From positions 1-61,468 of the forward strand of contig CAZPTF010000001.1 in the NCBI GenBank assembly GCA_964589015.1: a stretch of DNA of 61,468 bases, read 5' to 3'. Positions 10,769 through 57,463 of this stretch are shown one piece after another (within the stretch, counting starts at the first letter, position 1; the number at the start of each line of letters is the position of its first letter). Position numbers and translations under genes: made by a program. Source of the DNA: an uncultured Anaerolineae bacterium. GTDB lineage: Bacteria; Chloroflexota; Anaerolineae; DAOTYC01. Under the pieces are notes generated by a model that was not told the origin of the DNA, ran no database searches, and saw only the letters and a list, made by a program, of their open reading frames with translations.

Positions 10769-10777
10769 TACCCTCGT

Positions 10778-32384: not shown

Positions 32385-32385
32385 G

Positions 32386-36662: not shown

Positions 36663-37514
36663 CTACGCGGAGGTCGTGCGCGTTGGATCGCGATCACTGT
36701 CGCCGCTCGCCGTCGAGCCAGCACCACGGGCGTGAAGTTGACGATTGAAGCGAAGCCTCTCCCAAAAACGGCGCAATCGATCCGTGTCCCGTACTGTAAT
36801 CTGCCTGCGAAAGTGAAAGACGTCATTTCGCAATTCGTTGATTCGCTTAAGGTCCGCGTCAACGAGCTCACGCTGGCAGCGGAAGAACGGTTCGAACCTT
36901 GCCCAGCGGTCGCGCGAGCACATGATATCCAGGTATTGGCTAAAGCTCAGGTCCTTCAGGTCGCGGATAGGCTTCGCCTTCGGTTGAGTGAGTTCCTTGA
37001 ACACGTCCTCTCGCTCTTCGTCCGTCAACAGCGTCTCGATGACATCGCGCAGGTCGAGTTCTATTTCGTAAAGGAGCACAAAGGCCTCCGCGAAGTCGTT
37101 CAGCCTACCAAAAACGTCCGCCGTGGTCAGAATGCCGATTAGGTTGTCAGGGGCTCCGACGAGAACGTAGTCAATCCTACTCCAGTCGGTCGCCTTGTCC
37201 GTGTCGATGTACGTCTCGGGCGAAATGAAGACCGGCTCGTCCATGCAATCTCGGACTGTCAACTCCGTCGCGTCGAGCTTATTGCCGCGTAGGTCGAGCG
37301 CCCGCTTGCCGAACGACTGCCACGAGAAGATTCCGCTGATCTCACCTTCGCTGTTCCTCACTGGAATCTGCGAGAAACCCTCGTCGATCATCTGCTCTAA
37401 AGCGCTCCACACCAAGTCGTCTTCATGGGCAATGACCACCTCCTGTCCTGAAGGAAGGAGTGCATGCGCAGGACCGAAGGGGCCTGGCCGGCGATTTGGA
37501 AATCCTCGCGTCAT
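36663..37514 (-). CDS. CBS-pair domain protein with a C-terminal HEPN-like (Rx4H) domain
   Basis: CBS-like 'VVIAHEDDLVWSALEQMIDEGFSQIPVRNSEGEISGIFS' and 'VGAPDNLIGILTTADVF'. C-terminal 'INELRNDVFHFRRQ' fits the R-x4-H HEPN motif. ATGA overlap with the GmrSD stop. Confidence 0.8.
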   Translation of the reverse strand: MTRGFPNRRPGPFGPAHALLPSGQEVVIAHEDDLVWSALEQMIDEGFSQIPVRNSEGEISGIFSWQSFGKRALDLRGNKLDATELTVRDCMDEPVFISPETYIDTDKATDWSRIDYVLVGAPDNLIGILTTADVFGRLNDFAEAFVLLYEIELDLRDVIETLLTDEEREDVFKELTQPKAKPIRDLKDLSFSQYLDIMCSRDRWARFEPFFRCQRELVDADLKRINELRNDVFHFRRQITVRDTDRLRRFWERLRFNRQLHARGAGSTASGDSDRDPTRTTSA

Positions 37515-40598: not shown

Positions 40599-41303
40599 CT
40601 ACGCACTCCCACCGCTAGCCCGCCGGTTCGGTGATTCTCCCCGCCAGGAGAAGTGCAAGAACTCCTCATCCCGCGGCCGAATGGAGCGGTTCCAGCGTGC
40701 CTGTTTCATGTCCCTTAGGAATCTGTGTTCGCACCACAGATGTGGGTAGAAATGCCGAAAGACGAAACGAGAGAATCGCCCGATGCTCACCGGTCCTGCG
40801 ACCGCACAGCGGCAATGCGCCCACAGCATATGCACGTGGGTCGCCGAGTGATCATCATCCTCGTGTTGTGAGTCAAAGTCGAAGCGTAACGGTGTTCGCA
40901 ACCGGAGATAATCCGCCCCTTCGCTCTCATACGTGTCAACAACATCAAGCATCGGGTCCTGTGCCAATAGGGCTGGATCGACGTCATAGGGACATGGATA
41001 GAAGCAGAGCCGATGCCGAACGAGTGTGTTTCCACGAAAATCGTACGAGAGCTGTATCAGGGCCCCGTCCGCCAGAACAACCAAGTAGTCCTGTGACTCC
41101 AGAAGAGCGCGATACTCATCGATGCTCGCGAACGCGAAGTCCGTGAGCCGACCCGTTCTTGCCGCCAAGCGCTGCGAAGTGATCCTAGTCAGACTCGGTT
41201 CGGGATGCTGCGGCACAACGGGATTAGCAGTAAGCGCCACCCCTTGGTTCACCAAGAGGTCGGCATAATCCCGCATCTCCGCCATAAGCTGACTAGGCGT
41301 CAT
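40599..41303 (-). CDS. hypothetical protein (234 aa), possibly DUF2290-like
   Basis: The ATG at 41303 is preceded by 'GGAGTGAGGGGG' and overlaps the helicase stop by 11 nt. It has a His-rich stretch 'HEDDDHSATHVHMLWAHC'. The family guess is from memory and needs an HMM check. Confidence 0.7.
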   Translation of the reverse strand: MTPSQLMAEMRDYADLLVNQGVALTANPVVPQHPEPSLTRITSQRLAARTGRLTDFAFASIDEYRALLESQDYLVVLADGALIQLSYDFRGNTLVRHRLCFYPCPYDVDPALLAQDPMLDVVDTYESEGADYLRLRTPLRFDFDSQHEDDDHSATHVHMLWAHCRCAVAGPVSIGRFSRFVFRHFYPHLWCEHRFLRDMKQARWNRSIRPRDEEFLHFSWRGESPNRRASGGSA

Positions 41304-43467: not shown

Positions 43468-46400
43468 TCAGCCGGCTGTGGAGGCCACTTCCGCCGGTTC
43501 TGCGAACTGGGCGAGGATCAATTCGCGTGTACGGAACGTGTCCCAGCGGGCGATTTCGTATTTGGCGGCGGTGGGGAAATCCTCAAGAATGAAAGACATC
43601 TCCGACGCGGTCAGGCCGAGGATGTCCCGGGCGACGATGGCGTCTAGCTCGGCGCGTGCCTTAAGCCGCTCCTCTTCGTCCTCGATCGAACCCGGCTCCG
43701 ACCCAGCCACCCAGCCGTCGGCAGCCAGTTGCCGCCAGAGTGGGACCATCTCGGGGCCGCAGCATGTCAGGCCGGCTGCGAGTTCGACACATCGCCGGGC
43801 ATACGGCTTATCGTCCACAAGAGTCGGAAACGGCATGCTGTCCATGGTCGTGTAGGACATCTTGAGGCTCACCTTTCGCCGGATGAGGTAGTCCATGCTG
43901 AAAGAATTCGCCACTGTAAGCCACAACAGCATCTGCCACGGCAGCATCTGCCACGGCAGGCCATTCTCGAAAAGGAGTGTTGGCACCTTGTCGCCGGCTA
44001 CTGTGTGAGGAGGAATGATTGCCGCAACCAGGCTCCTTTCGTTCGTGGGGCTTGCGACATCGCAGAAGCCAATTCGGAAGCATCGAACTCGCTCAAGCAC
44101 CTTCTCAGGCAGCTTGTCCTCAGCAATGCACCACTGCGGCTGGATTCTCTTACGGGGATCTCCGAACGAATAGTCGTCCCAGACAGCGGATCGACCACGC
44201 CCGGAGACGTAGCCCTTTGCACGGTGATCGAACTGGGCAACCATTCGCCCCTCATACACTGGAAGCCCGTCGCCATCGGAGTTGAACAGGTCTCGGTTCG
44301 TTCCCATGTCGACTTCGCGCATGTACTTGCGAACAGGTCGCCACCGTTTCGTGTCACCAAACTTCGGCCAGCGGTCATAGACTTTCACAGAGACGTCCAC
44401 CGCCTCCTGAGATTCCAGCTCGGGAATGGCGAGGGCCGCCGGCGAAAACTCGCGAATCAGCCGGACGTCCATGAGCAGGCGCTTCCCCATAGTGGGCGAT
44501 AGCTCTGCCAGGGACGCGATGCGAAACGCCGTTGGAAACCGACTCGTCCTACCGCCGATCGCGGCGACGTAAAGGCAGAATTTCGTGCGTCCGTCGATGT
44601 TAGGGAACCAGATTCCGCGCAGATTCTCAAAGCCAAGCAAGAGCTCCAACTCCGTGTCATCGTACAAGTGTCGCCTAATCGCGGCAGCGTTGGGACCGTT
44701 GTACAGGTTCTCCGGAGTGAGCTGGGCCGCTCGACAACCGGTGTTCGTCCAATCCAGCGCCGTCTCGACGAACATGCGATAGACGTTGAAATCACCCTTA
44801 CCCAGGTTGCCCTTGGCGAAGAGTCGGTAACGCCCGCTGCGCTTGATGAAGTGTACGCTTGCGTAGAGGTCGCGGCGGTTCTGCTCCCATGCGGCTTTGA
44901 TCTGCGGATTCTCGCTCAACTCGGCGACAATGCGCTCCTGCTCGTCCTTCTCGCTGAAGCGGATCTGGGGATCGTATTGGGCGAAGAACTCCTTGAGGTC
45001 CGGGCTTAGGGTGTCCCAGGGCGGATTCCCTAGCATCAGGTCGAAGCCGCCACTCCAGCCGCTGTGGCCATCAGCGTTTGCACTCTCCTCTGGGAGCTGG
45101 AAGACGTCGGGAAAGCCGAGGTGCGGGTGGAAGAACCGGTAATGCTCCGCGAGACGCCGGATCTCCTGTTTCATCCACGGGACGATGTCATGCGGGTTCG
45201 CTTCGATGCGGCGGAACACGGATTCCGTGATAGCGTCGTCGAATTCCCGCGTCTTCGTCCAGACGAATGCTGCGCACCAGGCGTCAGCGAGCAGGTGGGC
45301 GCTTTCGTAGCCTGAAGACTCGATGAGTTCAGTATATCGCTGCGCTTTCGCCTCGACGTCGGCAAGCGAATCGTCACTCATCGCGTCAAGCGTGGCAAAG
45401 GTCTGCGGCATGTTGCCAAGCTTGAGCCACGGAAGTGCTCCCTCGAAGGTGAACAACGCCTGGCCGCCCCGTTCATCCTTGTTTCGCTTTTTGAAAGCTG
45501 TGCATAGCTCCTTGTTATCGCCCTCGATTGCGTTGAATGCGTCGTCTGGAACGCCGTCCTTGAGCAAACGCGGCGTGGCTCCAATCAATGAGTTGCCGCA
45601 CTTGATGTGGTGGTCGAGGAAGGTGAGCGGCTTGCCTGGCTCCAACGCCTCCATCCATAGCGACACCTTGCAGAGCTCGACGGCCATCGGGTTGATGTCG
45701 ACGCCATAAATGCAGCGACGGATCACATCACGAAGCGCATGCTGGTGGTCAGCGGGGGTCGGCTCCAGCTCGCCTGTGCGAACGCGCGCGAGATGGCGGG
45801 ATAGGCGGTGAGCAGCTGCAATCAGGAAGTGCCCCGAGCCGCTGGCCGGGTCGCAGACCTTCAGGCTCAGGATGGCCTCTTCTGCCTCGTCGCCTTTCTT
45901 GCCCTTCAGCGCGTCCTTCACGACCGGCTCGAGGGCAGAGTCGAGAAGACACTGCACCAGCGAATCGGGCGTGTAGTACGAGCCGCTGGTCTTTCGCTCG
46001 CTCCCGGCCACGGTGAGCAGGTTGAACGAGCGGGCGTGGGCGTCCATATCGGGTTGCAGTTCAAGCAGGGACTCGTAGACCGAGCCGAGCTCTTCGGAGC
46101 CGAGATTGCGGTAATCGACGCCGCGGAGGACCTTGTCCCGCTCAACATAGGCGAGCGAGCGGATGGCAGCGAGCAGATCATCGTTGCGGATGAGCACGGG
46201 CCCTGCGACCGTGTCGCCGTCTTTGCCCACCGGGCCGAGCAGGTCGGGCGTGGACTTGCGGGACCAGAGGAATGAGCCGAGACCCGCCAGCCCGAGCTGC
46301 GGGCAACCTTCCTTGTGGCCGAGGGCGTCGAAGACGAGCGAGAGCGTGTGCCACAGGTCGGCGTGTTTCGAGCCACGCATCTTCGTGGCCAGTTCGCGCA

Positions 46401-47379
46401 GGCGACGCGTTGAGTAGTGCTGATCGAAGAGGTTGCAGGCATCCTCGGATGCGTCCGGGGGATGGAGCAGCTCGCGGTCTTCGGCGACAAACAAGAACAG
46501 CAGGCGGTACACGATCCGCAGGAGTTGTCGATAGTAGTCCTGCGTCGAGAGTTCGCCCTTCTCTAACTTGACCCGCAAGTGCTCGTTGCGTGGGTGGCCG
46601 ACAAAGCCGCGTCCCAGGGCTTCGATTGCTCGGGTGACGCCGGTGCGGAGATCGGCCAGGACGCGCGTGCCCTGCTCCTGAGCGAGCTTGCTCCACGTTT
46701 CGAGCCAGAACTCGTCGGGTTTGTCACCCTCAACGCGAGACTGGTGGCAGAGCATCCAGAGCAACGCGAAGTCGGCGTAGACCTCGCCTTCCATCATTGC
46801 TTCGACGTCGAACTCGACGTAGGCCTGGCGCGAAAGCGCCAGATTGTCGCGCAGTATGCGAAGCTGAAGCCCGTTCGACAGGAACGCCCACAGGTGGTCG
46901 TCAGAGCGGTTGAGGAACTCCTGCACCATGCTGTGTGGGCTGGCCGTGGCGGCGCCACGCACACCCTTGGTGCGGCGGTCGAGGGGCAGCTTGCAGCCGA
47001 TCAGGTGCAGCGGCACGCGGTGCCAGAAGCGCTCAATGGGGTAGACTTTGCCTTCGATCTCGGGCGACTTTGATGTTGTCAGTCGGCCGAAGCCCAGTTC
47101 CTGGAAGAGCGGTAGGAGCCATCGTTCGCGCGTTGGCACGGCGCCGCTCTCGTCACTGTCCGGAATGGCCTCACGGGCTTCCTGGAACACCTTCCAGTGC
47201 TTGAGCAGCCGAGTCCATGTCTGGCTGACAGCCTCATTGAGCTTGGTCGATGGGGGAAGGTGATAGGCATCGGGCGAAATACCCTCGACTTGGAGAGACG
47301 CGATGCGCTGGAGGATGTCCGGCGGCAGCATCGCGCCTTCGGAACGAATCGTCTGGAACTGTTCATTCTTACGCGCCAT
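43468..47379 (-). CDS. drmMI: large N6-adenine DNA methyltransferase (Eco57I/PglX-like); DISARM class-1 DrmMI-like
   Basis: Motif I 'VCDPASGSGHFLIAAA' and motif IV 'MLGNPPWD'. It is 1303 aa and its start overlaps the SNF2 gene stop by 11 nt. Confidence 0.85.
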   Translation of the reverse strand: MARKNEQFQTIRSEGAMLPPDILQRIASLQVEGISPDAYHLPPSTKLNEAVSQTWTRLLKHWKVFQEAREAIPDSDESGAVPTRERWLLPLFQELGFGRLTTSKSPEIEGKVYPIERFWHRVPLHLIGCKLPLDRRTKGVRGAATASPHSMVQEFLNRSDDHLWAFLSNGLQLRILRDNLALSRQAYVEFDVEAMMEGEVYADFALLWMLCHQSRVEGDKPDEFWLETWSKLAQEQGTRVLADLRTGVTRAIEALGRGFVGHPRNEHLRVKLEKGELSTQDYYRQLLRIVYRLLFLFVAEDRELLHPPDASEDACNLFDQHYSTRRLRELATKMRGSKHADLWHTLSLVFDALGHKEGCPQLGLAGLGSFLWSRKSTPDLLGPVGKDGDTVAGPVLIRNDDLLAAIRSLAYVERDKVLRGVDYRNLGSEELGSVYESLLELQPDMDAHARSFNLLTVAGSERKTSGSYYTPDSLVQCLLDSALEPVVKDALKGKKGDEAEEAILSLKVCDPASGSGHFLIAAAHRLSRHLARVRTGELEPTPADHQHALRDVIRRCIYGVDINPMAVELCKVSLWMEALEPGKPLTFLDHHIKCGNSLIGATPRLLKDGVPDDAFNAIEGDNKELCTAFKKRNKDERGGQALFTFEGALPWLKLGNMPQTFATLDAMSDDSLADVEAKAQRYTELIESSGYESAHLLADAWCAAFVWTKTREFDDAITESVFRRIEANPHDIVPWMKQEIRRLAEHYRFFHPHLGFPDVFQLPEESANADGHSGWSGGFDLMLGNPPWDTLSPDLKEFFAQYDPQIRFSEKDEQERIVAELSENPQIKAAWEQNRRDLYASVHFIKRSGRYRLFAKGNLGKGDFNVYRMFVETALDWTNTGCRAAQLTPENLYNGPNAAAIRRHLYDDTELELLLGFENLRGIWFPNIDGRTKFCLYVAAIGGRTSRFPTAFRIASLAELSPTMGKRLLMDVRLIREFSPAALAIPELESQEAVDVSVKVYDRWPKFGDTKRWRPVRKYMREVDMGTNRDLFNSDGDGLPVYEGRMVAQFDHRAKGYVSGRGRSAVWDDYSFGDPRKRIQPQWCIAEDKLPEKVLERVRCFRIGFCDVASPTNERSLVAAIIPPHTVAGDKVPTLLFENGLPWQMLPWQMLLWLTVANSFSMDYLIRRKVSLKMSYTTMDSMPFPTLVDDKPYARRCVELAAGLTCCGPEMVPLWRQLAADGWVAGSEPGSIEDEEERLKARAELDAIVARDILGLTASEMSFILEDFPTAAKYEIARWDTFRTRELILAQFAEPAEVASTAG
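43927..43959 (-). repeat. perfect in-frame 15-bp tandem duplication inside the methyltransferase gene
   Basis: The unit catctgccacggcag occurs twice (43930-43944 and 43945-43959) and is preceded by a partial 'cag'. It encodes 'LPWQM-LPWQM-L'. Confidence 0.9.
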
Positions 47380-50245
47380 GTGATCGCGCCTCCTGCTCTG
47401 CTGGCGGCAGTAGAATGAAACAGCCCAACAGGTCCGGTGGAAGCACCGGCTCGACCGCGACGCGTCCCTTCATCTTGGCGGACTTGCGCACACGGGTATG
47501 GGCGTCAAGAAGCAGTTCCGCCCGGTGCTTCGCCAGCTTGGCCAGGTGAGGTTCAAGCGGCGCCGCATGAGAGACGAGGTGGGTAACCTGCGCCGTGACC
47601 AGCGATGGGGGGACGTTCGCCGACGGCTTGGCCTGAAGCAGTTCATCGGCGTCCTTTTCGTCGAGCCAGTTTGGCTGCTCGGGGGTACCGGTGAAGGCGA
47701 GGGCCCTGATCTCCTCGGCCAGCATGCAATGACCGGTTTCGCCACGCAGCTTCACGATCAGGTGGTAGCGGAAGCGTACGAGCAAGAGGGATGTCTTCTC
47801 TCGCACGGCGTCGGTGCGGATGGCGCCGCAGCGCTTCGCGATTATGCGCTCACCTTCGGCCGCCACCTCATCGAGGGCAGTCTCCAGTACGTACGAAGCC
47901 AGGCCTTCGATGATCGGGTGCGTGCGACTCAGGTAAATGATTCTCTCGTCGACAGGCAATTCAAAGCGGCCGACAAACGGTTCGTCCCGGCCAATCGCGT
48001 TGCGAAGGGCTCGGGGCGTCTCCTTCCCGAGCGTGACCTCAATTTGGCCCGACCGTTTCTGCTTCAGTGGAACGCCGGCAAGATGGAGCACATCCTCCAC
48101 GAAGTTCTTCGTGGTTGGGCCCGCGCCGATGGCTTCGCGGATTGCGGCGAGTTCCGCCGCTGCCTCCTCCTTCTTGATGGAAAGCTGGGCGAAGCGCGAG
48201 CGAGAGCGTTTTTCCTTGTCCTTGACGTCGTCCCACTTGGCATGCAAGTCTTCGCGTTGGGGTTTGAAGAACTCCTCGAAGCCAGGCAAGTACGGTCCGG
48301 CAATACCTGACGACTCCCGAAGCAGCATTCCCTCAAACAGGGCTTCAATCACGTCTTCGCTGTTTCCGGGAACCGCCACTGAGATGCCCAGATCGCTCTT
48401 GATCTGCTTGTGCTTTCGGAGGAGCACATCAAGCACGACGCCGTCGATCTGGTTGTCCTTGCCGAAGTACGTGAGTACGCGAACAGTATCGCGCGGCTGA
48501 CCGAAGCGGTCGACGCGTCCTTCACGCTGTTCATGCCGAGTGGGATTCCAGGACAGGTCGTAGTGCATAACGGCGTCGAACTCGTCTTGCAGGTTGATTC
48601 CCTCGCTCAGGCAGTCCGTACAGACGAGGACGCGTGAATCGTGCTCTGCAAGTTGTTTGATTCGATCCTCGCGCTCTTTCGGAGGGAGCATTCCGGTGAC
48701 GGCAGCAACTTCGACGCCTTGTTTCTTGAATGCTGCACGAAGGTGCTCGGCCAGGTATTCCGCCGTGTCGACAAACCGGCAGAAGAGAATCGGATGATGC
48801 CCAGCATCGAGAAGTTCTTTGACGAGCTTGATGCCCTTGTTCAGCTTCTCGTCCTTCTTGCTCTCGAGCTTCTCGGCTTCGCGGGCGAAGGATCGGAGGC
48901 GGTCTCGTAGTGAGCGGTCTGCGGATTCGTCCGCGGCATCGCCGCCAGGCGTGAAGTCGATGCCCTCGACGGTATCCAGGTCCTCCTGGTCCAACACTGC
49001 ACGCCGGCCAAGTTCGTCAGCGTCTTCGGGCGTCTCCGAATCGGCAGTGGCGGCTCGATTTCGGAGCGTCGACGCGGCTGCACGAGGGCTGGAAGCGAGC
49101 GACCGAAGAAGAGCAAGGGCCGACCACCAACGAACGCGCCGATGCCGTCCCGATCCACTCTTGTCGGCGACCATCTCCTGCGCGAACGCGAAGACCTTTT
49201 GGAAGAAAGCCTTGTACTCTGGACTCAACGCGTATGTGTCTTCTTTATCCTTGCGGTCTGGAAACGAAGTCTCGGCAAGGTAGTCACGAATATCGGCCCG
49301 GCGGCGCTGGATGAGATGGTCCGCGAGCTGCGCACGAATTGCGGCCCGCTCGTCTGTTTCAAGATCGGATGGAATCGAACCAAAATCGGCCCTCAAGAGC
49401 CCGAGCAGCGATCGAAACGCCGCCTCATTACCGCTGTGCGGTGTGGCTGTGACGAGAATCAGGTGGCGGTTGTCGTCAGCCGAAATGCGCTTCACGAGCT
49501 CGTGACGCGCCTGTCGTGCGCGGCCGGCCTTGTCGGCAATCGTGCACGTGTGGGCCTCATCCACGATCACTAGTTCCGGGCAGGCGCGAATGAAATCGTC
49601 CCTGCGACGCTCCGACTTGATGAAGTCGGTTGAGACGATCACCGCTGGATAACGGTCGAATAGCGATTCACCCGGACGGCATGAGCGTTCGAGCCGTTGC
49701 ACGGTTGAACTCAGTACGAGCTCCGCATCAATATGGAATTTCTGATGCAGCTCTCGCTGCCATTGCTCCGCCAGGTGTGGTGGGCATAGGACCGCGAGAC
49801 GGGTTGCCTCGCCTCGATCGAGCAGTTCGCGTGCGACCAAACTCGCTTCAATCGTCTTCCCGATACCGACATCGTCTGCAACGAGCAGCCGCACCGGGTC
49901 CAGCCGCATCGCCATCAGGAGCGGCACAAGCTGGTACGGACGTGGTTCAACGGCGATTCGACCGAAAGATCGGAACGGACCAGCCGCTGCCCTAGTGGAC
50001 AGCCTTGCTGCGTCTCGCAGCAAGCGACACGAGTGATAGTCGCCTGGCGAATCCGGGCTGGGTGGGCTGAAAGTCGACGGGACCACATCTTCGATGGCCG
50101 GCAAGACCGTCGTAATTTCGTCATCCAGCCCGCCAATCGGACGAACAACGAGCAAGTCGTCGGTCGAATCAGGCAGCACGACCCATTCACGGCCACGCAC
50201 TCGGACGAGGGCGCCCGAAGGAAGCGATCCAGCTACGGTCGTCAT
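47369..50245 (-). CDS. drmD: SNF2-family helicase; DISARM class-1 DrmD-like
   Basis: Motifs 'DDVGIGKTIEA', 'VIVDEAHTC', 'LVCTDCLSEGINLQ' and 'WNPTRHEQREGRVDRFGQ'. The ATG at 50245 forms an ATGA overlap with the upstream stop; the ORF opens with TTG at 50293. Confidence 0.88.
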   Translation of the reverse strand: MTTVAGSLPSGALVRVRGREWVVLPDSTDDLLVVRPIGGLDDEITTVLPAIEDVVPSTFSPPSPDSPGDYHSCRLLRDAARLSTRAAAGPFRSFGRIAVEPRPYQLVPLLMAMRLDPVRLLVADDVGIGKTIEASLVARELLDRGEATRLAVLCPPHLAEQWQRELHQKFHIDAELVLSSTVQRLERSCRPGESLFDRYPAVIVSTDFIKSERRRDDFIRACPELVIVDEAHTCTIADKAGRARQARHELVKRISADDNRHLILVTATPHSGNEAAFRSLLGLLRADFGSIPSDLETDERAAIRAQLADHLIQRRRADIRDYLAETSFPDRKDKEDTYALSPEYKAFFQKVFAFAQEMVADKSGSGRHRRVRWWSALALLRSLASSPRAAASTLRNRAATADSETPEDADELGRRAVLDQEDLDTVEGIDFTPGGDAADESADRSLRDRLRSFAREAEKLESKKDEKLNKGIKLVKELLDAGHHPILFCRFVDTAEYLAEHLRAAFKKQGVEVAAVTGMLPPKEREDRIKQLAEHDSRVLVCTDCLSEGINLQDEFDAVMHYDLSWNPTRHEQREGRVDRFGQPRDTVRVLTYFGKDNQIDGVVLDVLLRKHKQIKSDLGISVAVPGNSEDVIEALFEGMLLRESSGIAGPYLPGFEEFFKPQREDLHAKWDDVKDKEKRSRSRFAQLSIKKEEAAAELAAIREAIGAGPTTKNFVEDVLHLAGVPLKQKRSGQIEVTLGKETPRALRNAIGRDEPFVGRFELPVDERIIYLSRTHPIIEGLASYVLETALDEVAAEGERIIAKRCGAIRTDAVREKTSLLLVRFRYHLIVKLRGETGHCMLAEEIRALAFTGTPEQPNWLDEKDADELLQAKPSANVPPSLVTAQVTHLVSHAAPLEPHLAKLAKHRAELLLDAHTRVRKSAKMKGRVAVEPVLPPDLLGCFILLPPAEQEARSHGA

Positions 50246-53200
50246 TGGCTGCCTCCAAAGATGTCGCGGTACTGCCGAAAGACCGCATCCCAATCGGCGG
50301 CATGGTGGAAACGGATGACGAGATAGCCAGCCGCGAGCAGGCAGTCCGTAATTCGTTGATCTTCCGCTTGCTGGTCTGGCTCGTCATGCGGAGGCCCGTC
50401 GACATAAACCGCTGCGTTTGCGTCTTTGTAGAAGAAATCTGCGCGGGTGCGGCACGCGCTGATGAGGTGCTGACCGTGGGATGGGACGCGCAACCGCTTT
50501 TCCTCGACCTTGCGGAGCCACTTCTTCTCAAGTTGAGAATCGCAGCCCTGATTAAGCGCCGCCAGTAGGTCTTCACGCGTTTGCCGCCCGGGAGCCGTCC
50601 TTACGGTCGCTTGGGCAAGATCCCGCAGAACGTCAATGACCTTTTTGCGATCGATGATGCGGTGATCCAATTGGTTTCCGTATTCGAGGAGGCAGTCGTA
50701 GCAAGCCGCCTCGCAGCCGACTCCGTTTCCTGCCTCGCCGCCATGATCCTCACCGGTATCAGGGTCAAAGTGGCAGATCTCGATCGCCGTCCGAGCGATG
50801 CGACTCAGCGCATCTGCGTCCTCCACGAGTTGACGAAGGACACCAGCGCCGCCTTCTGCTGCTTCGTAGAAGAACAGCAAGCGTCGATCGTCACGGGAGG
50901 GCATGGCCTCTGCGGCAAGCTCTTCGGGTTCAAGCTGATACAACTGCTGGATCGCTTGCTTCAAGGCCGACTGCAACGATGCCATCACCGACGCGTCGTG
51001 GCGGACCTCGAACTCAACTGTCAGCGCATTGCGGCGGTCTTCAACATAAGGAACGACCCGCTCCACCCGCCGAGACATCGGATCATCTCGATCACCATCC
51101 TCCACTTCGCGGTTTCGAGCCCAATAGCCGCGTTCGACATCAAGCAGGAACCCCTTCTCGTTGGGATTGGAGCGCCGGAGCCACCCCAGGTTGACTCGCC
51201 AGATCGTCGCCGTGTCACCGTATTTGAGGGTGGCAATGTGACAAGGTCCGGACGCGACCTCTGCGGTTCGTACATCGGGAATAGCATCGACGTCCGAGAA
51301 GCGAAAGCTCGTGCGTATTTCGTAACCGATACGCTGTCTCTCTTCCTCGTCTGACGTGATTCTGTCCTTACGCCTGGCGGTAACGTTCTGCAAACGTACC
51401 ATCTCCCGAATCTCGTCTCGGGGATACAGCGGTTGATGACAATTGTCGCAGATGTCCACACCCGGCCCACTCGCGACGAGGTGCCCGTAGCCACAAACCG
51501 AGCAGGCCTTCATCGTTGCTTTCGTTAGGTCTTGTCCCTCCCTGTCGAAGGCCAGATTAACCTTGTTGATGACGTAACGTGCACCCTCGTGATAGACGAG
51601 TGCTTGCGGTCCAAACTCAGAAATGGCCAAGAAACGCGGGCGGGAGAGGTATTCGTCTCTTCCTCTTCGCCCACGACGTGCCGGAATGAACGCTGAGAGC
51701 GGCAGTCGCGGAAAGCTGTAGCCAGGCAGAAACGCCTCGCTGGCGAAGTACCGGTAGCTGTAGAAGTCGCCTTCTATAACTCCTTGGGGGCTGGTGAGCA
51801 GCTGAATCTGTGATTCCGCTTGCGCTCGAAGCCGCTTCGCTCGCTCCCGGTCAATTGCAGGTCGACTATGGTCACCAATCACCTGGTTCTGCAAGTGGCG
51901 CTGCTGAACGGCGGCCTTGTAGAGGCTTCGCCATCTTGTGCACGCCTCATCAAAGGTCTGAGGCAGTCGTGCAAGCACATCGTCAACCCAATCGTCCCGG
52001 TACCACGGGGCTTCGCCAAGCTCGGGCCCGATGCGCTGCAGCAGCGTTTTGGCGCGCTCCAGCGCGCGCAGGCGCACAGTAGCATCCCGTAGCCGCTCCT
52101 CGATCTCTGACTTCAGTGGCAACGACAAATCGTCCTCCGTAACGACGAGAACATCGGTAAGCGTCTGGCCCAGGTTCATTTGGGCCTCAGACAGCCACAC
52201 CGCATGAACGTGAGCTTGAATCAGGTCGCGGTTCAGGAGATCGAGTCGGGGCGCGGACACAGCTCCGCAGACCATGCCATTGGGATGTCGGAAGTAATAC
52301 TGATCGTGAGGACTGAAGCCCGAACAGTACGTGTACACGAGCGCCGGCTGCCCGCTGCGCCCTGCGCGCCCACTCCGTTGGGCATAGTTAGCTGGCGTGG
52401 GGGGCACGTTTCGCATGTTGACCACGTTGAGCTGAGCGATATCGACGCCCAACTCCATGGTTGGCGAACAGAACAAGATCGGGAGGTCACCGGCGCGGAA
52501 CCGCTGCTCCCGTTCAATCCGCACATCGGAAGGAACTTGAGCCGTGTGCTCGCGTGCTTCGAGACCGGCACCACTGTCGGCGAACGTCTTGTAGAACTCC
52601 ACAAAGTACTGGTTGGCTGCTCGGTCAACGTCGGTCTCGCGGGTAACTCGCAAGGGATCGACAAGCGGACAAGAACCGTCTCCGGCCCTCCAGTGCATTA
52701 CGGATGCAGGGACTTGGTAGCCAGGGACATCACCACCTTGTCGGGGTGATCGCACCTCTTCAACAAGTCCCCACTTCTTGAGCCCCTGAAAGAGGTCCGC
52801 CACGATTGTCGCCGTGTCGTCGAGCGTAAGCTGCCCCTCCGTGTGCGTCATTACGCCAGGACGGCGGAGATACAGCCCGAAGTTGCTTTGAGGCGAGACG
52901 AATATGTCCTCATGCCGCTCACGTGCGCCACGGCTCCGAGGCCACGCGACGCCAGCTCGCTCCATGGTGGCGGGGTCTTCGATGACCCAAGGGTCTCGTA
53001 GACGCTGCCGGCTCTGTTCGCTGATACGCTCTTGATATGTCGGGTTCAGCGTATCTTCTTTGACGGCGAGGCTACGCCGCATATGGTCGAGCAGCGTCCG
53101 GATCACGTCGGCGCGCTGAGCTGCGGTCGAGGCAATCAACGTGGCGTGCGCGTGGCGGTCCTGCCAAAACTGCATGTCGCAGGCAGCGTCATCCAGGCCA

Positions 53201-55428
53201 AGATACTCGATACGCAACAGCCCGCATTGCTCAAGGTTGGGGGAGGTGACACGCCAGCCGCGCTGCAGATCGCGGTAAAGGAAGTAAGCGAGAACAGAAC
53301 GCAGTGCACGCCGGGTTTCCTGCAAGGCGGGGCCACGGATTTCAGGATCATTGGCGTACAAGTCGATGGGCAAATCCATGGCGCGTTCGACATGCTGCAC
53401 GAGTTCGTCGTACGCCAGGCCCGCTTCCCCAACGCGCTGCATGGCCCGGAATAACGCAGATCGAATCAGGCCAACTTCAACAAAGTCGTTGAAATGCCCG
53501 GCTTGTAGCGAGGCGTCCTGTCGATTGTCTGTGAAGCTAAGCAGCTTGCGTGCTTTGTCTTCGAGGGTTTCTTCAACCCTAAGCTTTAGAATTGTCGAGA
53601 GTGCCAGGACCGACGTCGCTGTGCTTCGACCATCTACGCCGATTGTCGCGAGTTTTGAGAGGTCAGACCGCTGCCGTGCACTGTACGCCACGCTGCATTC
53701 AGGATTCAGGCAGAAGCGAAACGGCGTCGGAACGAATGCGAAGGCGAGGCCGTTTTCGGCCGGCCGACCATTCGGCGCAAGTCGCATGATCTCTGGCACC
53801 GGTTGCTTACGTTTGACGCGTCGAGTGCCGTCCGGACGTGTCTCGATCCAGTCGTCAGGAATGCGCTCCATCACGTCTTCGAAATCGCCGGTCCATGGAT
53901 GCTCACTCGAGAAATACAGGTAGCCCGTCTCGTACTCCTCGGAGATCGTCCGCTCGAATCTCTCCTTCGGGATGACCGGATCGTCCTTGCCGTGTATGGG
54001 TCGATCGACGCGATAGTAGGGCTGGCCACACTCGCGGCAGAAGACGAGCGGAAGCAAGATGCGATCACGGTCGCCCGGGACAAACTGCTGGCCACGAAGC
54101 GTCAAGAACCTTCGGTCCTCGGGCTCGAGGGATGACCAGATGGTATCTCCGCGTGTGATGAACTGGTGCAGTCGAAACGGGAAAAGTGGAAACCCGGTTT
54201 CATCGTCCAGCAGGCTGGCGCCGGCACGCAGGCAGTCTTGGACTGCGTGCTCTGCGGCAGCTCGATCACTATTCGTCAAGGTCGCTAATTCAAGTGCGGC
54301 CCCTTCGTCTCCGCTGATCGCTCGGGGCGTCTGACGTACCAGCTTCCCCGTGCATTCCTCGCGCCTTAGCCCAAAGACCGACTCAATCCAGGAAGCCAGC
54401 GCGTTCTCGCGAAACTCCTCGGCCTTGCCGGGTATCTGGCTCGGGTCAAGCACGACCGAACGTAGCGAATCGACATTATTGGCTGAATCAAAGTCGATGT
54501 CCGCGGTGATACGCCGCAGGCTCTCGCCGACAACCTGCTGAGGTCCAACTTCTTGGCCGAAAACCTCCGAAGCAACCGCCGCGACTGTCCGCGCCTGGGC
54601 TTCGCTATCGCCTTCCGAGGCCATCGTTGCCGAGGTTCCAATGCAGATCAGGTCGTCCCCGCTGAACGCCTCCCGGCACCGGCGAACTAGCATCGCTACA
54701 TCGGCGCCTTGACGCCCGCGATACGTGTGCAGCTCGTCCAAGATCAAAAACCGGAGGTTGCTTGCGTGTTCCACCAGCTGGCGTTCATCTACCCGCGTCA
54801 GAATGAGTTCGAGCATCACGTAGTTGGTGAGCAGAATGTCCGGCGGCTCGCGGAGAATGCGCTCCCGAGCAGCTGCATCCTCCTGCCCCGTGTAGCGGGC
54901 GTACGTAACCGGCGAGGTCCCCTCCCCGTATCCCAGCTTCAGGAACTTGTCGAGCTCCTCTTTTTGGCTGTTCGCCAGCGCATTCATCGGATAGACGACA
55001 ATCGCCTGCACCCCGCGGCCGGTGCCGTTTCGCAAAACGTAATCCACGGCGGGAATGATGTAGGCCAGGCTCTTGCCCGACCCCGTGCCTGTCGTGAGAA
55101 CGTAGGGCAAGCTCCGCTGGGCCAAACGGATCGCCTCAGTTTGGTGGCGGTGCAGCCGCAGAGGTCTGCCGTAGGGATCTTGAACCGTCTTCATTCGAAA
55201 CATCCTGCTGCACTCGGGCTGCAGGACTCCACTCTGCACGAGCTCGTCGACGGTCTCGCCCGTTTCGAACGCCGGGTTCAGCTGCAGGAGCGGTTCGGGC
55301 CAGAGCAGGCCCTGCTCAATCTCGGCGGTTACAGCCTGAAGAATGCGTTCGTCCCCGATGCGTATGAAGCTCCGAATATACGCCGCGTAGTCCGCGACGA
55401 CACGACGATGAAGTTCAAACACGTCCAT
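50242..55428 (-). CDS. drmA: 1728-aa fusion of DExH helicase, DUF1998-like Cys-rich domain and C-terminal DUF559/Vsr-like endonuclease; DrmA+DrmB-like
   Basis: Helicase motifs 'TGTGSGKS', 'LILDELHTY', 'GTSATM' and 'YAQRSGRAGR'. DUF1998-like Cys clusters 'CSVCGYG....CDNCH' and 'GCEAACYDCLLEYGNQ'. C-terminal 'ADFFYKDANAAVYVDGPPHD......D..R...L...GYLVIRFHH'. Confidence 0.85.
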   Translation of the reverse strand: MDVFELHRRVVADYAAYIRSFIRIGDERILQAVTAEIEQGLLWPEPLLQLNPAFETGETVDELVQSGVLQPECSRMFRMKTVQDPYGRPLRLHRHQTEAIRLAQRSLPYVLTTGTGSGKSLAYIIPAVDYVLRNGTGRGVQAIVVYPMNALANSQKEELDKFLKLGYGEGTSPVTYARYTGQEDAAARERILREPPDILLTNYVMLELILTRVDERQLVEHASNLRFLILDELHTYRGRQGADVAMLVRRCREAFSGDDLICIGTSATMASEGDSEAQARTVAAVASEVFGQEVGPQQVVGESLRRITADIDFDSANNVDSLRSVVLDPSQIPGKAEEFRENALASWIESVFGLRREECTGKLVRQTPRAISGDEGAALELATLTNSDRAAAEHAVQDCLRAGASLLDDETGFPLFPFRLHQFITRGDTIWSSLEPEDRRFLTLRGQQFVPGDRDRILLPLVFCRECGQPYYRVDRPIHGKDDPVIPKERFERTISEEYETGYLYFSSEHPWTGDFEDVMERIPDDWIETRPDGTRRVKRKQPVPEIMRLAPNGRPAENGLAFAFVPTPFRFCLNPECSVAYSARQRSDLSKLATIGVDGRSTATSVLALSTILKLRVEETLEDKARKLLSFTDNRQDASLQAGHFNDFVEVGLIRSALFRAMQRVGEAGLAYDELVQHVERAMDLPIDLYANDPEIRGPALQETRRALRSVLAYFLYRDLQRGWRVTSPNLEQCGLLRIEYLGLDDAACDMQFWQDRHAHATLIASTAAQRADVIRTLLDHMRRSLAVKEDTLNPTYQERISEQSRQRLRDPWVIEDPATMERAGVAWPRSRGARERHEDIFVSPQSNFGLYLRRPGVMTHTEGQLTLDDTATIVADLFQGLKKWGLVEEVRSPRQGGDVPGYQVPASVMHWRAGDGSCPLVDPLRVTRETDVDRAANQYFVEFYKTFADSGAGLEAREHTAQVPSDVRIEREQRFRAGDLPILFCSPTMELGVDIAQLNVVNMRNVPPTPANYAQRSGRAGRSGQPALVYTYCSGFSPHDQYYFRHPNGMVCGAVSAPRLDLLNRDLIQAHVHAVWLSEAQMNLGQTLTDVLVVTEDDLSLPLKSEIEERLRDATVRLRALERAKTLLQRIGPELGEAPWYRDDWVDDVLARLPQTFDEACTRWRSLYKAAVQQRHLQNQVIGDHSRPAIDRERAKRLRAQAESQIQLLTSPQGVIEGDFYSYRYFASEAFLPGYSFPRLPLSAFIPARRGRRGRDEYLSRPRFLAISEFGPQALVYHEGARYVINKVNLAFDREGQDLTKATMKACSVCGYGHLVASGPGVDICDNCHQPLYPRDEIREMVRLQNVTARRKDRITSDEEERQRIGYEIRTSFRFSDVDAIPDVRTAEVASGPCHIATLKYGDTATIWRVNLGWLRRSNPNEKGFLLDVERGYWARNREVEDGDRDDPMSRRVERVVPYVEDRRNALTVEFEVRHDASVMASLQSALKQAIQQLYQLEPEELAAEAMPSRDDRRLLFFYEAAEGGAGVLRQLVEDADALSRIARTAIEICHFDPDTGEDHGGEAGNGVGCEAACYDCLLEYGNQLDHRIIDRKKVIDVLRDLAQATVRTAPGRQTREDLLAALNQGCDSQLEKKWLRKVEEKRLRVPSHGQHLISACRTRADFFYKDANAAVYVDGPPHDEPDQQAEDQRITDCLLAAGYLVIRFHHAADWDAVFRQYRDIFGGSQ

Positions 55429-55437
55429 GGAATGCCT

Positions 55438-55638
55438 CTATCGTTTCGGCGCCTTACGCTTGGCAAGGTCGGTGAGCACCGTTGCGAGTTCCTTCTTAGA
55501 ATAAAGCCGGTAGCCTGTGATCGGGTGCCGACGTGCCTGCAGCTTGCCCGCCCGATCCCACCGGCGCATCGTGTCCTTGCTTACGCCCAGGAACTCGGCA
55601 GCCTCGCCGACCGTCAGGTACTCGTTGAGTTTCGCCAC
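55438..55638 (-). CDS. MerR/excisionase-type HTH_17 DNA-binding protein (66 aa)
   Basis: 'LTVGEAAEFLGVSKDTMRRWDRAGKLQARRHPITGYRLYSKKEL'. The GTG start is preceded by GGGGAG. It ends 9 nt before the DrmA-like gene. Confidence 0.8.
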   Translation of the reverse strand: MAKLNEYLTVGEAAEFLGVSKDTMRRWDRAGKLQARRHPITGYRLYSKKELATVLTDLAKRKAPKR

Positions 55639-56126
55639 GGCAATGCTCCCCGAGGGTTAGGCAGCATTATGCAATAGGTCGGCGTCGCGGTCCAGGGGTA
55701 GAGCCGGACTGGCCGTTCGTGTTAATGCGGGCACGGCTATCCGGAAGAGCCGTCGCGCGGCGACCAAGCCCGCCCGACGCTGCTCAAATGTCGACGACGA
55801 CTCCACTCGGTCCCAAACCATGGTCGGGCCCCCGTCATCTCCGGGATCCTCGTGGGCGGACCACACAATCGCGGTGGCTCCACCAGCCGGAAACCGGTCG
55901 ACGAGTCGGAATGCCGACTGGAACGGCTCGTCGGCGGACGTCTGGGCTGGGCCGTTCGAAACGTAACGTATTCATTGATAGATGTTTACGGAATGCTCTC
56001 CTCCCCCCAGCAAACGTGATTGTCTGGCTCAGCTACAGCCGCATCCGCACGGCGCGAACCCAGGTCCCACAGGACGTTACCGGCCTTCGTGACGTGCTCT
56101 GATGACGGGCTCTCCTGCGGAAGAAA

Positions 56127-56159
56127 CATGCTTGACACATCAAGCATGCTTGATATGTT
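56127..56159 (+). promoter_or_regulatory. sigma70-like promoter with embedded palindromic operator upstream of the XRE/pAgo operon
   Basis: -35 TTGACA (56132-56137), a 16-nt spacer, and -10 TATGTT (56154-56159). The palindrome CATGCTTGA-caca-TCAAGCATG spans 56127-56148 and overlaps the perfect 14-mer palindrome TCAAGCATGCTTGA (56140-56153). The SD GGAGGA is at 56170-56175 and the ATG at 56184. Confidence 0.55.
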
Positions 56160-56183
56160 ACGCAAAAATGGAGGATTCACCGG

Positions 56184-56531
56184 ATGCATTGCTTGGGACC
56201 AATGCTCGCAGAAGCTCGCACCCGTAAGAGGCTCAGCCAGCGTGCCGTGGAGGCAGAAACGGGGATTTCGAACGCTTACCTGAGCCAGATTGAAGGCGGC
56301 AAGGTTCGCAAACCGTCGCCGACCATGCTTCACAAGCTCGCCGAGCTCTACGAGTTGGACTACGCCACGGTACTTGATTGGGCCGGTTACCCTGTGCCTT
56401 CAGCAGAATCGCGCAAACAAGCATCGCGACTCGCAGCACGCATCGGCCCAACCACGGAGAAGGAGGAAGACGCGATCGCCGAGTACCTAGCCTTCCTGCG
56501 GTCAAAGAAGCGGAAGGGAGGAAGTAAGTGA
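56184..56531 (+). CDS. XRE (Cro/CI)-family HTH transcriptional regulator
   Basis: 'LSQRAVEAETGISNAYLSQIEGGKVRKPSPTMLHKLAELY'. A strong SD precedes the start. Its stop overlaps the next start (GTGA). Confidence 0.88.
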   Translation: MHCLGPMLAEARTRKRLSQRAVEAETGISNAYLSQIEGGKVRKPSPTMLHKLAELYELDYATVLDWAGYPVPSAESRKQASRLAARIGPTTEKEEDAIAEYLAFLRSKKRKGGSK

Positions 56532-57463
56532 TCTGGTCAATCTCAGCGAGCCGGACCTTCCGCCGTTGCCAGCGACAGTGGTACTTCAAGAGCCTAGTGG
56601 CAAACGCCAACGCGAAGAAGGATCCAGTTCGTCGAAGGGCATACCTGCTCAGCAAGCTTCAGAGCATCTGGGCGTGGCGTGGCCAGATCGTAGATAGTGT
56701 CATCAGCGACCGTCTTGTTCGAGCGATCAACGCGGGTGGTACGATTACGCTTGCTGACGCAAGAGCTGAGGCCCGTCGTCTGTTTGATCTTCAGTTGGCT
56801 TTCGCCCGAGAGCATCGGCTGCACGAGCCGGGCATGTCGGTCACCAAGGCCGGCGATGCGTTTGCGGCTTTCTACTGCATGGAATACGACGGCGAAATAG
56901 ACGACAATGAGATCGAACGGGCGTGGCAGGACGTGGAAATGGCGCTAGGCACGCTCTACAAACTCCGGGACGTCGCCGACGCAATGAAGTCCGCACGATA
57001 TTTGGTGGCTCAACGCGCTCTCTGCTTCAGCCATTCGGGCGAAACCGTTCGTGCGGTGCCCGATTTGATCGCGTTCCACGATGATCAGCCACCAATGATC
57101 ATTGACTGGAAGGTCCACACCCTTGGTCAGCATGAGGCTTGGCTCCAGCTCGGCACTTACGCCGTCGCGCTGGCCTTGTGCAGCCCGCACAACGATTTCC
57201 CACAGGGCAGGCAGTGGGTTGCCACCGACATCCGGCTGCTGGAGGTCCAACTACTCACGGGTGTGGTTAGACAGCATCACGTCACTGAAGAATCGGCCCG
57301 CGATATTGACGCCTACATTGCCGATAGCGTCAATCAAATCCGCCTGGCCATGCAACGCAAGGACAAACGTGCATTGGCACCTGAGGACTTCCCGACGACA
57401 TCGTATGCCGAGGCGTGCTCTTGGTGTCCCTACAAGGTGCTATGTTGGGAGGAAGAGGTGTGA
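56528..57463 (+). CDS. PD-(D/E)xK nuclease, Cas4/RecB/AddB-like with four Fe-S-type cysteines
   Basis: 'VPDLIAF' (D179), 'IIDWKV' (D193-x-K195) and 'WLQLGTYAVA' (QhxxY). The cysteines are C14 and 'CSWCPYKVLC' (C297, C300, C306). Confidence 0.82.
   Translation: MIWSISASRTFRRCQRQWYFKSLVANANAKKDPVRRRAYLLSKLQSIWAWRGQIVDSVISDRLVRAINAGGTITLADARAEARRLFDLQLAFAREHRLHEPGMSVTKAGDAFAAFYCMEYDGEIDDNEIERAWQDVEMALGTLYKLRDVADAMKSARYLVAQRALCFSHSGETVRAVPDLIAFHDDQPPMIIDWKVHTLGQHEAWLQLGTYAVALALCSPHNDFPQGRQWVATDIRLLEVQLLTGVVRQHHVTEESARDIDAYIADSVNQIRLAMQRKDKRALAPEDFPTTSYAEACSWCPYKVLCWEEEV

Follow-up and report, generated by a model that had tools for sequence, protein, structure and literature searches.

A probable ARMADA Type I anti-phage operon in a defence island of an uncultured Anaerolineae bacterium

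The ARMADA systems (disARM-related Antiviral Defense Array) are related to DISARM by name and by content. ARMADA Type I was named for an array in which a YprA gene is followed by a BrxHII-like helicase gene and then by a PglX-like methylase gene, and in which an active C-terminal Vsr nuclease is predicted (Bell et al., bioRxiv 10.1101/2025.09.15.676423). The insertion between RecA1 and RecA2 of the Type I helicase comprises BrxA-like, beta-barrel zinc-module and MarR-like domains, and the OB region of this helicase holds a single inserted zinc module (Bell et al.). Type II has been studied in E. coli, where it confers anti-phage, non-abortive defence that requires every gene, the ATPase motifs and the NPPW motif (Bell et al.); Type II defence has also been reported in EHEC, in a study that attributes the ARMADA II prediction at its locus to DefenseFinder (mBio 2026, PMC13463889).

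Two further systems are close to the locus analysed here. DISARM class 1 likewise combines SNF2 and YprA-superfamily helicases with an N6-adenine methylase and a DUF1998 module, and it too is believed to target invading DNA that is unmodified. Its helicase and DUF1998, however, are encoded by separate genes, its nuclease is the separate PLD protein DrmC, and an EVE-like domain at the N-terminus and a trigger loop are features of its DrmA; in the present locus, helicase, DUF1998 and a Vsr nuclease share one polypeptide, and the helicase is of another clade. Druantia type III contains DruE, to which the present helicase is closer in sequence than to any other characterised helicase (PADLOC 5.1e-106). 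Both are large YprA proteins with comparable insertions and a nuclease fused at the C-terminus, and DruE acts on ssDNA-containing intermediates, whereas its nuclease domains are of the PLD type, it has a DruH partner, and neither an SNF2 helicase nor a methyltransferase belongs to the system.

Gene organization of the locus

ORF calling and translation identified four intact ORFs on the minus strand, spanning positions 43468-55638 (Table 1) of the window, the 61,468-nucleotide stretch of Anaerolineae DNA. PADLOC and Pfam searches of the window ORFs showed this 61-kb region to be a dense defence island. A preliminary description of this DNA had listed consecutive minus-strand genes for an HTH_17 protein, a helicase, an SNF2 helicase and a methyltransferase; all four are present with the domain content claimed, and every motif that it quoted (TGTGSGKS, DELH, QRSGRAGR, AVYVDGPPHD...GYLVIRFHH and NPPW) occurs in the translations. 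The interval that it gave, 47369-55638, covers three of these genes but leaves out the methyltransferase gene. The gene junctions are exactly as it had reported: the SNF2 start codon and the helicase stop codon overlap as ATGA, and the SNF2 and methyltransferase genes share 11 nt (ATGGCGCGTAA). In the JGI public gene call, the SNF2 gene starts 110 codons later than the ATGA-overlapping ATG; alignments with homologues of the protein begin at residues 1-11, in support of the overlapping start. The operon ends were not defined by scans for terminator-like sites (14, vs 14.2 in shuffled controls) or promoter-like sites (6, vs 3.3 in shuffled controls, ~1.6 sd above).

Table 1. Coordinates of the genes and of the helicase-nuclease domains in the window
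Feature	Position	Strand	Basis or remark
MerR/HTH_17 DNA-binding protein, 66 aa	55438-55638	-	Ends 9 nt upstream of helicase gene
ArmC-like YprA-family helicase-nuclease, 1728 aa (probable ARMADA Type I helicase)	50242-55428	-	Pfam DEAD, Helicase_C, MZB, DUF559
RecA1 lobe, residues 94-271, Walker A TGTGSGKS and DELH box	54616-55149	-	Pfam DEAD
Four-cysteine zinc-binding module, C464, C467, C573, C578	53689-54051	-	Inside the ~680-residue RecA1/Helicase_C insertion
RecA2 lobe, C-terminal part, residues 951-1026, motif VI QRSGRAGR	52351-52578	-	Pfam Helicase_C 2.5e-13
Second zinc module, CxxC...CxxC, C1309, C1312, C1327, C1330	51439-51504	-	Upstream of DUF1998
DUF1998 / MrfA zinc-binding (MZB) domain, residues 1485-1580	50689-50976	-	Pfam PF09369 6.7e-11
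Vsr/DUF559-type PD-(D/E)xK nuclease domain, residues ~1630-1710	50299-50541	-	Predicted active
ArmA-like SNF2 (BrxHII/RapA-like) helicase, 958 aa from ATG	47369-50245	-	Pfam SNF2-rel_dom and Helicase_C
ArmB-like PglX/Eco57I-type N6-adenine DNA methyltransferase, 1303 aa	43468-47379	-	Pfam Eco57I and N6_Mtase

The SNF2 protein gave a strong PADLOC match, over its full length, to a model labelled 'DpdE' (PDLC02853; 7.9e-265, 879 bits); it also matched PADLOC DrmD (4.3e-85) and BrxHI/HII (6e-62) and NCBIfam RapA (4.2e-39). The Dpd system raised by the first of these matches was rejected, as no Dpd modification genes are present: a check for DpdA and preQ0 synthesis found no TGT or Que genes in the scanned window ORFs. 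The other PADLOC DpdE models matched weakly, and the NCBIfam DpdE and DpdJ equivalogs scored far below their cut-offs. Evidently, the PDLC02853 model captures SNF2 proteins of the ARMADA type.

The methyltransferase contains motif I (DPASGSG) and motif IV (NPPW) and matches Pfam Eco57I (2.9e-15) and N6_Mtase (5.8e-09). Its match to the PADLOC DrmMI model (PDLC02643, 2.4e-71) is limited to residues 454-788 of 1303, and Type IIG models score alike; the catalytic region is matched by NCBIfam PglX models. The kinship of the SNF2 protein and the methylase with DrmD and DrmMI of DISARM class 1, which the preliminary description had proposed, is borne out at the level of homology by the PADLOC matches.

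The small protein encoded upstream of the helicase matches Pfam HTH_17 (3.4e-11) and MerR (2.8e-11) as well as the PADLOC mad1 model (3.4e-12). The MADS system (mad1-mad8 with the MAD2 methyltransferase) suggested by the last match was rejected, since this generic HTH protein alone matches mad1 and the NCBIfam MAD2 score was 30.6 bits vs a cut-off of 720. Of 63 genome loci, only 2 have a similar HTH gene ahead of the helicase gene, and for this reason it was rejected as a core ARMADA component; it was found in three of the seven close relatives looked up (the window itself, L084 and L088). The gene is a sporadic accessory that probably encodes a transcriptional regulator of the operon.

Domain architecture of the helicase-nuclease

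The largest ORF combines a YprA-family DExH helicase and DUF1998 in one polypeptide, in which the DEAD (2.6e-24), Helicase_C and MZB domains all exceed their Pfam cut-offs (PF09369, 43.2 bits vs 24.2). In an alignment of 15 homologues, the RecA1 motifs TGTGSGKS and DELH are invariant, as are the four cysteines of the second zinc module and the DUF1998 cysteines C1552, C1572, C1576 and C1579. The four cysteines within the long insertion are invariant in two alignments (A1 and A4), and the position of this module matches that of the beta-barrel ZBM of Bell et al. An AF2 model placed beta strands at the four-cysteine module, whose fold was not confirmed by Foldseek; the model of the insertion (residues 272-950), in which the BrxA-like and MarR-like domains were sought, is of low confidence (pLDDT 67.8, pTM 0.43), and its Foldseek matches were noise only.

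The C-terminal block had been read in the preliminary description as a fused nuclease of the DUF559/Vsr type, and this reading was upheld. In a scan of the full-length protein, Pfam DUF559 (residues 1634-1708) scored 20.0 bits, just below the 20.6-bit cut-off, and it reached 25.2 bits, above the same cut-off, in a scan restricted to the C-terminal 137 aa. DUF559 was also detected in the C-termini of 10 of 12 homologues. The AF2 model of the domain has a pLDDT of 89.6; among its compact Foldseek matches, the Vsr-like homing endonuclease I-Bth0305I (3r3p_B) ranks best (probability 0.99, TM 0.67, with a weak E-value of 0.04). A PDB profile search with this domain returned the Vsr-like entries 3hrl and 3r3p at the top, both weakly (E = 0.3-0.7). 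Residues E1634, Q1653, D1664, D1677, G1678, P1679, H1681 and D1690 are invariant in the homologue alignments. The polypeptide ends ~20 residues past this single C-terminal Vsr-type domain. A few family members (L038, L078) have degenerate Vsr motifs, and some lineages may therefore be able to do without the nuclease.

The absence of a PLD nuclease of the DrmC type, also part of the preliminary description, held under several searches. Only two HxK(x)4D strings were found in the six frames of the window, one of them antisense within the SNF2 gene, and neither is followed by GSxN; Pfam scans of the window ORFs detected no PLDc family member, and no PLD gene was found in the neighbourhoods of relatives. 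Clustering of 2073 neighbouring ORFs from 83 loci, which would have exposed a hidden PLD gene or a fourth conserved gene, yielded no cluster present in >11 loci and none that was PLD-like. The proposal that the fused Vsr/DUF559 nuclease takes the nuclease role is retained as a predicted function.

Relationship to ARMADA, DISARM and Druantia

Along its entire length, the YprA helicase shares 67% identity with QDU56729.1 of Aeoliella mucimassa, which is designated an 'ARMADA Type I helicase' in Table S1 of Bell et al. By this pairwise identity, the helicase is assigned to the ARMADA Type I clade; only local similarity, at 23-40% identity, links it to Type II ArmC and DruE. Relatives are encoded in at least 594 species-level genomes, and in a survey of 80 of these loci the order helicase-SNF2-methylase was conserved in nearly all, among Planctomycetota, Actinomycetota, Pseudomonadota, Chloroflexota, Acidobacteriota, Deinococcus and others. 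Among loci with sufficient sequence, nearly all have the SNF2 gene directly downstream of the helicase gene, and the methyltransferase is the conserved third gene; the co-occurrence of the fused helicase with these two genes, which the preliminary description had singled out for survey, proved to be the rule. One cyanobacterial locus (L076) has its helicase gene last, behind those for SNF2 and methylase, which matches the cyanobacterial order described by Bell et al.

In all probability, these genes form an intact ARMADA Type I anti-phage system with its three core genes in canonical order. Gene content, gene order, domains, conserved catalytic residues and the conservation of the trio across phyla are all matters of observation, and the likeness to Type I extends from the three core genes in the same order to the post-RecA1 insertion with a putative zinc module, the fused DUF1998, a lone Vsr-type nuclease, predicted active, at the C-terminus and the lack of a PLD gene. 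The only difference is the extra upstream MerR/HTH_17 gene, which is absent from the description of Bell et al. The E. coli Type II system (armABCD) has a homologous trio, with identities of 26% to ArmA (1.2e-45), 24% to ArmB (9.7e-39) and 23-33% to ArmC, but its order, SNF2, methylase, YprA, is the reverse of that found here (YprA, SNF2, methylase, without ArmD); moreover, its fourth essential gene, armD, encoding a RelE-GajB-like helicase, and the extra EEP and second Vsr domains of its 2113-aa ArmC are absent from the locus.

The preliminary description had interpreted the genes as a non-canonical DISARM class 1 system with a fused DrmA-DrmB and a Vsr nuclease in place of the PLD nuclease DrmC. 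Points in favour of this interpretation are the homology of the SNF2 protein and the methylase to DrmD and DrmMI, the membership of the helicase in the YprA superfamily of DrmA, the presence of a DUF1998 as in DrmB, and the lack of a PLD gene. However, the helicase scores 354 bits against Druantia DruE3 (5.1e-106) and only 51 bits against DrmA (1.3e-14) in PADLOC; the SNF2 protein, although homologous to DrmD, scores 319 bits vs the 610-bit cut-off of the NCBIfam equivalog NF038317 and thus lies below the family threshold; and the NCBIfam DrmA, DrmB and DrmC models gave no match at all. The affinity of the helicase for DruE over DrmA agrees with the phylogeny of Bell et al., in which such helicases fall in the ARMADA-Druantia clade, not in the DISARM-Dpd clade, and a close homologue of the present helicase branches outside the DISARM DrmA clade. 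According to the same study, the fused helicase-DUF1998 is the norm of the YprA family, and the split state is a peculiarity of DISARM. Since fusion is the norm and DruE scores far better, the protein is not a DrmA-DrmB fusion and the locus is not a DISARM variant; the uniform length and very wide spread of the architecture likewise indicate that no local fusion event took place. The DISARM interpretation is very unlikely and, by the criterion set in the preliminary description itself, a classifier's assignment of the genes to another known system, is superseded by ARMADA Type I, a separate, named and widespread system under whose name the 67%-identical homologue is already listed, so that the claim of novelty is not sustained either.

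Another reading is that a DruE helicase gene in a defence island merely has an SNF2 gene and a methyltransferase gene, the latter solitary or Type IIG-like, as unrelated neighbours, the three forming no functional unit. The best PADLOC matches of the helicase are DruE models, the window is densely packed with defence genes, and the best PDB sequence match is 9tu7_Y, a 2108-aa DEAD/DEAH box helicase (6.2e-66), which we take to be a probable DruE-like chain. The translational overlaps joining the three genes and the recurrence of the trio, with its order kept, at nearly all of the 80 loci from many phyla argue against such a chance arrangement; in addition, PADLOC detected no DruH among the neighbours, and the helicase ends in a Vsr/DUF559 domain instead of the C-terminal PLD domains of Druantia III DruE. 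This explanation is extremely unlikely.

A further possibility is a larger functional unit, in which the trio acts together with the genes for a UvrD-like helicase (717 aa) and a DUF2290 protein that follow on the same strand, 21 nt after the methylase stop, and that would fill the role of the UvrD/GajB-like ArmD in Type II. Besides this proximity, the requirement for the UvrD-like ArmD in Type II and weak PADLOC matches of the 717-aa protein to GajB would fit such an extension. Yet the PADLOC model for the helicase of the Helicase-DUF2290 system matches the 717-aa protein from end to end (1.2e-232), the partner protein matches DUF2290, and this pair is a validated stand-alone defence system (Rousset 2022). 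Furthermore, the similarity to E. coli ArmD is confined to 68 residues around the P-loop, Pfam detected no RelE-like N-terminus on the 717-aa protein, and the 80 related loci contain neither gene. The 717-aa helicase was therefore rejected as an ArmD equivalent, the pair is classified by its sequence matches as a separate known system, and a joint action with the trio is highly improbable. Also improbable is a hybrid of five or six genes, in which the Type I system of this lineage would have acquired a dedicated MerR/HTH_17 regulator and might be co-transcribed and coupled with the helicase-DUF2290 pair; if true, such a hybrid would echo the UvrD-like ArmD of Type II.

Proposed mode of action and implications

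For ARMADA Type I, we infer an anti-phage function, as well as every biochemical step set out here, for Type I in general and for this locus; the defence logic of Type II is presumably shared. The methyltransferase would place an m6A mark on a short host motif and would probably also take part in target recognition, as PglX does in BREX. The YprA helicase would engage unmarked foreign DNA and then translocate with ATP; the sites of engagement are probably DNA ends or single-stranded stretches, as demonstrated for the related DrmAB and DruE. The SNF2 motor probably couples recognition to cleavage by remodelling the DNA or tracking along it, and the fused Vsr-type nuclease would nick or cut the DNA, a task that in DISARM falls to the separate PLD nuclease DrmC. 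The resulting defence would be expected to be direct and not abortive.

The architecture highlighted by the preliminary description is the defining one of ARMADA Type I, which was made public in a preprint of September 2025 and occurs in hundreds of species, and its discovery value is small. The case nevertheless indicates that a reading of the sequence alone is able to recover a real class of system, one whose three genes are scattered by older classifiers (PADLOC-DB v2, NCBIfam) over the labels DruE, DpdE and DrmMI. The locus very probably adds an intact example of Type I, from a metagenomic defence island and with a recurrent HTH accessory gene. As a well-preserved operon, it would be a candidate for experimental tests of Type I, including the role of the fused Vsr nuclease as the effector.

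Gene layout and ARMADA Type I identity

The four genes of the unit are consecutive on the minus strand and together occupy 43468-55638 (table below); the stop codon of the large-helicase gene and the start codon of the SNF2 gene share ATGA, and the SNF2 and methylase genes overlap in the 11-nt string ATGGCGCGTAA. The observations of the preliminary description (genes, domains and overlaps) were confirmed by the open reading frames (ORFs), by translations containing all of the motifs quoted and by Pfam; its genes are real, but the range assigned to them ended at 47369, thereby leaving out the methyltransferase. The JGI gene call for the SNF2 gene starts 110 codons too late.

Features of the unit and neighbouring defence genes
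Feature	Coordinates	Strand	Evidence
HTH protein, 66 aa	55438-55638	minus	ORF; Pfam MerR and HTH_17
Large helicase, 1728 aa	50242-55428	minus	ORF; Pfam DEAD, Helicase_C, MZB/DUF1998, DUF559
SNF2 helicase, 958 aa from ATG	47369-50245	minus	ORF; Pfam SNF2-rel_dom and Helicase_C
Methylase, 1303 aa	43468-47379	minus	ORF; Pfam Eco57I and N6_Mtase
UvrD-like helicase, 717 aa	41293-43446	minus	PADLOC "Helicase" PDLC03002, 1.2e-232, full length
DUF2290 protein	40599-41387	minus	PADLOC Helicase-DUF2290 model, full length
GmrSD-type enzyme	37511-39607	minus	GmrSD_N, GmrSD_C, DUF5655; PADLOC Orf5 1e-166, HEC-06
XRE-type HTH, Cas4-like nuclease, class II pAgo	56184-59838	plus	PADLOC (nuclease and pAgo)

The unit was compared with the E. 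coli EDL933 OI-172 locus as the ARMADA Type II reference, including the representative ArmC (WP_000937974.1) of Bell et al. The SNF2 protein matches the SNF2 helicase ArmA (26%, 1.2e-45) and the methylase matches ArmB (24%, 9.7e-39); the large helicase aligns with ArmC only locally, at 33% identity across 255 aa and 23% across 760 aa, which is no better than its match to DruE. In Type II the gene order is the reverse of that in the unit, and the RelE-GajB-like ArmD, as well as an additional EEP domain and a second Vsr domain in the helicase, are Type II features that are absent here; the locus is therefore assigned to ARMADA Type I, of which it is an ordinary, intact member, and this identity is well supported. 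The C-terminus of both Type I and Type II helicases has been described as carrying "a predicted active Vsr-type nuclease" (Bell et al., bioRxiv 10.1101/2025.09.15.676423). The earlier reading of a non-canonical DISARM class 1 variant with a fused endonuclease was partly right in substance, but its DISARM classification and its claim of novelty were wrong.

The fused nuclease and the search for a PLD nuclease

Pfam places DEAD at residues 94-271 of the large helicase, Helicase_C at 951-1026 and MZB/DUF1998 at 1485-1580 (43 bits; cut-off, 24). DUF559 (1634-1708) scored 20.0 bits in the full-length scan, below the cut-off of 20.6, and 25.2 bits when the last 137 residues were scanned alone, a separate scan by which this borderline assignment becomes firm; 10 of 12 homologous C-termini also match DUF559. 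The AF2 model of the C-terminal domain is confident (pLDDT 89.6), and its best compact Foldseek match is 3r3p_B, the Vsr-like homing endonuclease I-Bth0305I (probability 0.99, TM 0.67); 3hrl and 3r3p also head the sequence-profile search against the PDB, both weakly. The active-site residues of E. coli Vsr are E25, D51, H64 and H69. Residues E1634, Q1653, D1664, D1677, G1678, P1679, H1681 and D1690 are invariant among the homologues, and E1634, D1664, D1677 and H1681, in our own reading guided by these Vsr residues, align with acidic or histidine residues of the DUF559/Vsr active site; because these positions are retained, the fused nuclease is predicted to be active. The AF2 model of a 679-residue insertion in the same protein was poor, and a fold search with it was uninformative.

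The absence of a PLD gene, as first proposed, was upheld by motif and family searches. Only two HxK(x)4D strings, one of them antisense inside the SNF2 gene, occur in the six frames of the 61-kb window, neither followed by GSxN; Pfam found no PLDc family in 47 ORFs of the window, and PLD was likewise not found in the neighbourhoods of close relatives.

Conserved core and surrounding genes

The large-protein family is very large and uniform in length (approximately 1725 aa), and at least 594 genomes encode a relative when each species is represented by a single genome. Among the 80 loci retained, which cover Planctomycetota, Actinomycetota (Streptomyces, Mycobacterium, Frankia), Pseudomonadota, Chloroflexota, Acidobacteriota, Deinococcus and others, tblastn places SNF2 and then methylase genes directly downstream in the same order in nearly all with enough sequence; in the cyanobacterial locus L076 the pair lies upstream of the helicase instead. 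When 2073 further ORFs from the neighbourhoods were clustered, neither another conserved partner nor a PLD emerged, and the core is accordingly a cassette of three genes. Upstream of the helicase, an HTH gene of this kind occurs in three of the seven close relatives examined (the window and the related loci L084 and L088) and in only two of 63 more distant genome loci; it is a sporadic accessory, most plausibly encoding a transcriptional regulator. Promoter and terminator scans did not rise clearly above shuffled controls.

Just downstream of the methylase, an ORF of approximately 650 aa without a Pfam match is conserved across six Planctomycetota and Burkholderiales ARMADA I loci (L015, L064, L065, L075, L080 and L083), and a different ORF of approximately 750 aa occurs there in five actinobacterial ARMADA I loci; neither is present in the window, and they may be lineage-specific fourth components. 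The cassette has decayed in two close relatives: the SNF2 gene of L088 (13531-14523) is truncated with no methylase after it, and in L089 (13178-21178) IS66-family transposase genes separate a shortened SNF2 gene from the methylase. Relaxase, resolvase or integrase genes adjoin several relatives' cassettes, which suggests carriage on mobile elements.

The wider context of the unit, which lies on a metagenome contig, is a defence island. The Helicase-DUF2290 pair begins 22 nt past the methylase stop codon on the same strand and may therefore be co-transcribed with the ARMADA genes. Helicase and DUF2290 have been validated as an anti-T7 system in its own right (Rousset et al. 2022), with which the pair is identified by its model matches; neither gene was found in any of the 80 related loci, and the 717-aa helicase has only a P-loop stretch in common with ArmD. 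Downstream of the GmrSD-type gene, with a 4-nt overlap, lies a gene for a 283-aa CBS-domain protein without a defence-model match (pair at 36663-39607, minus). On the other side of the unit (56124-59838, plus), the XRE-type HTH gene is accompanied by genes in which PADLOC detects a Cas4-like PD-(D/E)XK nuclease (Aga_Cas4-like_Nuc, 9.6e-118) and, as pAgo_II (3e-293), a class II prokaryotic Argonaute; an 18-nt near-palindrome just upstream of this set (56129-56164), overlapping a promoter-like site, is probably an operator, and the two ORFs after the Argonaute gene, to 61345, have no family matches.

Elsewhere in the window, a run of large signalling genes (764-12631, minus) encodes an FHA-domain protein and three Ser/Thr protein kinases that carry, respectively, Laminin_G_3, zinc ribbons and an FGE-sulfatase domain. 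Adjacent genes at 18140-22828 (plus) for a DNA polymerase III beta-clamp-like protein, an AAA ATPase and a DUF3150 protein may represent a module of mobile-element or plasmid type; no tRNA gene lies in the window. At 14782-16452 and 30775-35270 are two proteins with weak HATPase_c_3 matches (possibly MORC-like) and one with a weak radical-SAM match, surrounded by several ORFs of 300-540 aa without Pfam or PADLOC matches, which may be uncharacterised defence-island cargo.

Proposed mechanism and classifier labels

In E. coli, Type II defence depends on each of its four genes, on the helicase Walker motifs and on the methylase NPPW motif, and protection is non-abortive (Bell et al.); in EHEC, ARMADA II protects broadly, with the exception of phages whose DNA is hypermodified (PMC13463889). 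DrmAB and DruE, which are related to the ARMADA helicase, engage single-stranded DNA features. By analogy with these systems, the Type I methylase would mark self DNA and probably help target recognition, as in BREX, while the YprA helicase would load on unmodified invading DNA and translocate, the fused Vsr domain would nick or cut the DNA, and the SNF2 motor would assist.

PADLOC-DB v2, used for the defence models, scatters the genes of the unit over several systems. The large protein best matches Druantia DruE3 (5.1e-106, 354 bits) and DrmA only at 1.3e-14 (51 bits), since DruE is the nearest relative of ARMADA helicases (Bell et al., bioRxiv 10.1101/2025.09.15.676423). The methylase matches DrmMI over part of its length (2.4e-71) as well as Type IIG models, and the HTH protein matches mad1; with NCBIfam as the source of equivalog models, no unit protein reached a model's own cut-off (DrmD, 319 bits against 610). 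The SNF2 protein matches PDLC02853, labelled "DpdE", over its full length (7.9e-265, 879 bits), followed by DrmD (4.3e-85), with weak matches to other DpdE models. Because PDLC02853 matches the ARMADA SNF2 protein end to end, older classifiers would mislabel ARMADA genes as parts of Dpd, Druantia or DISARM.
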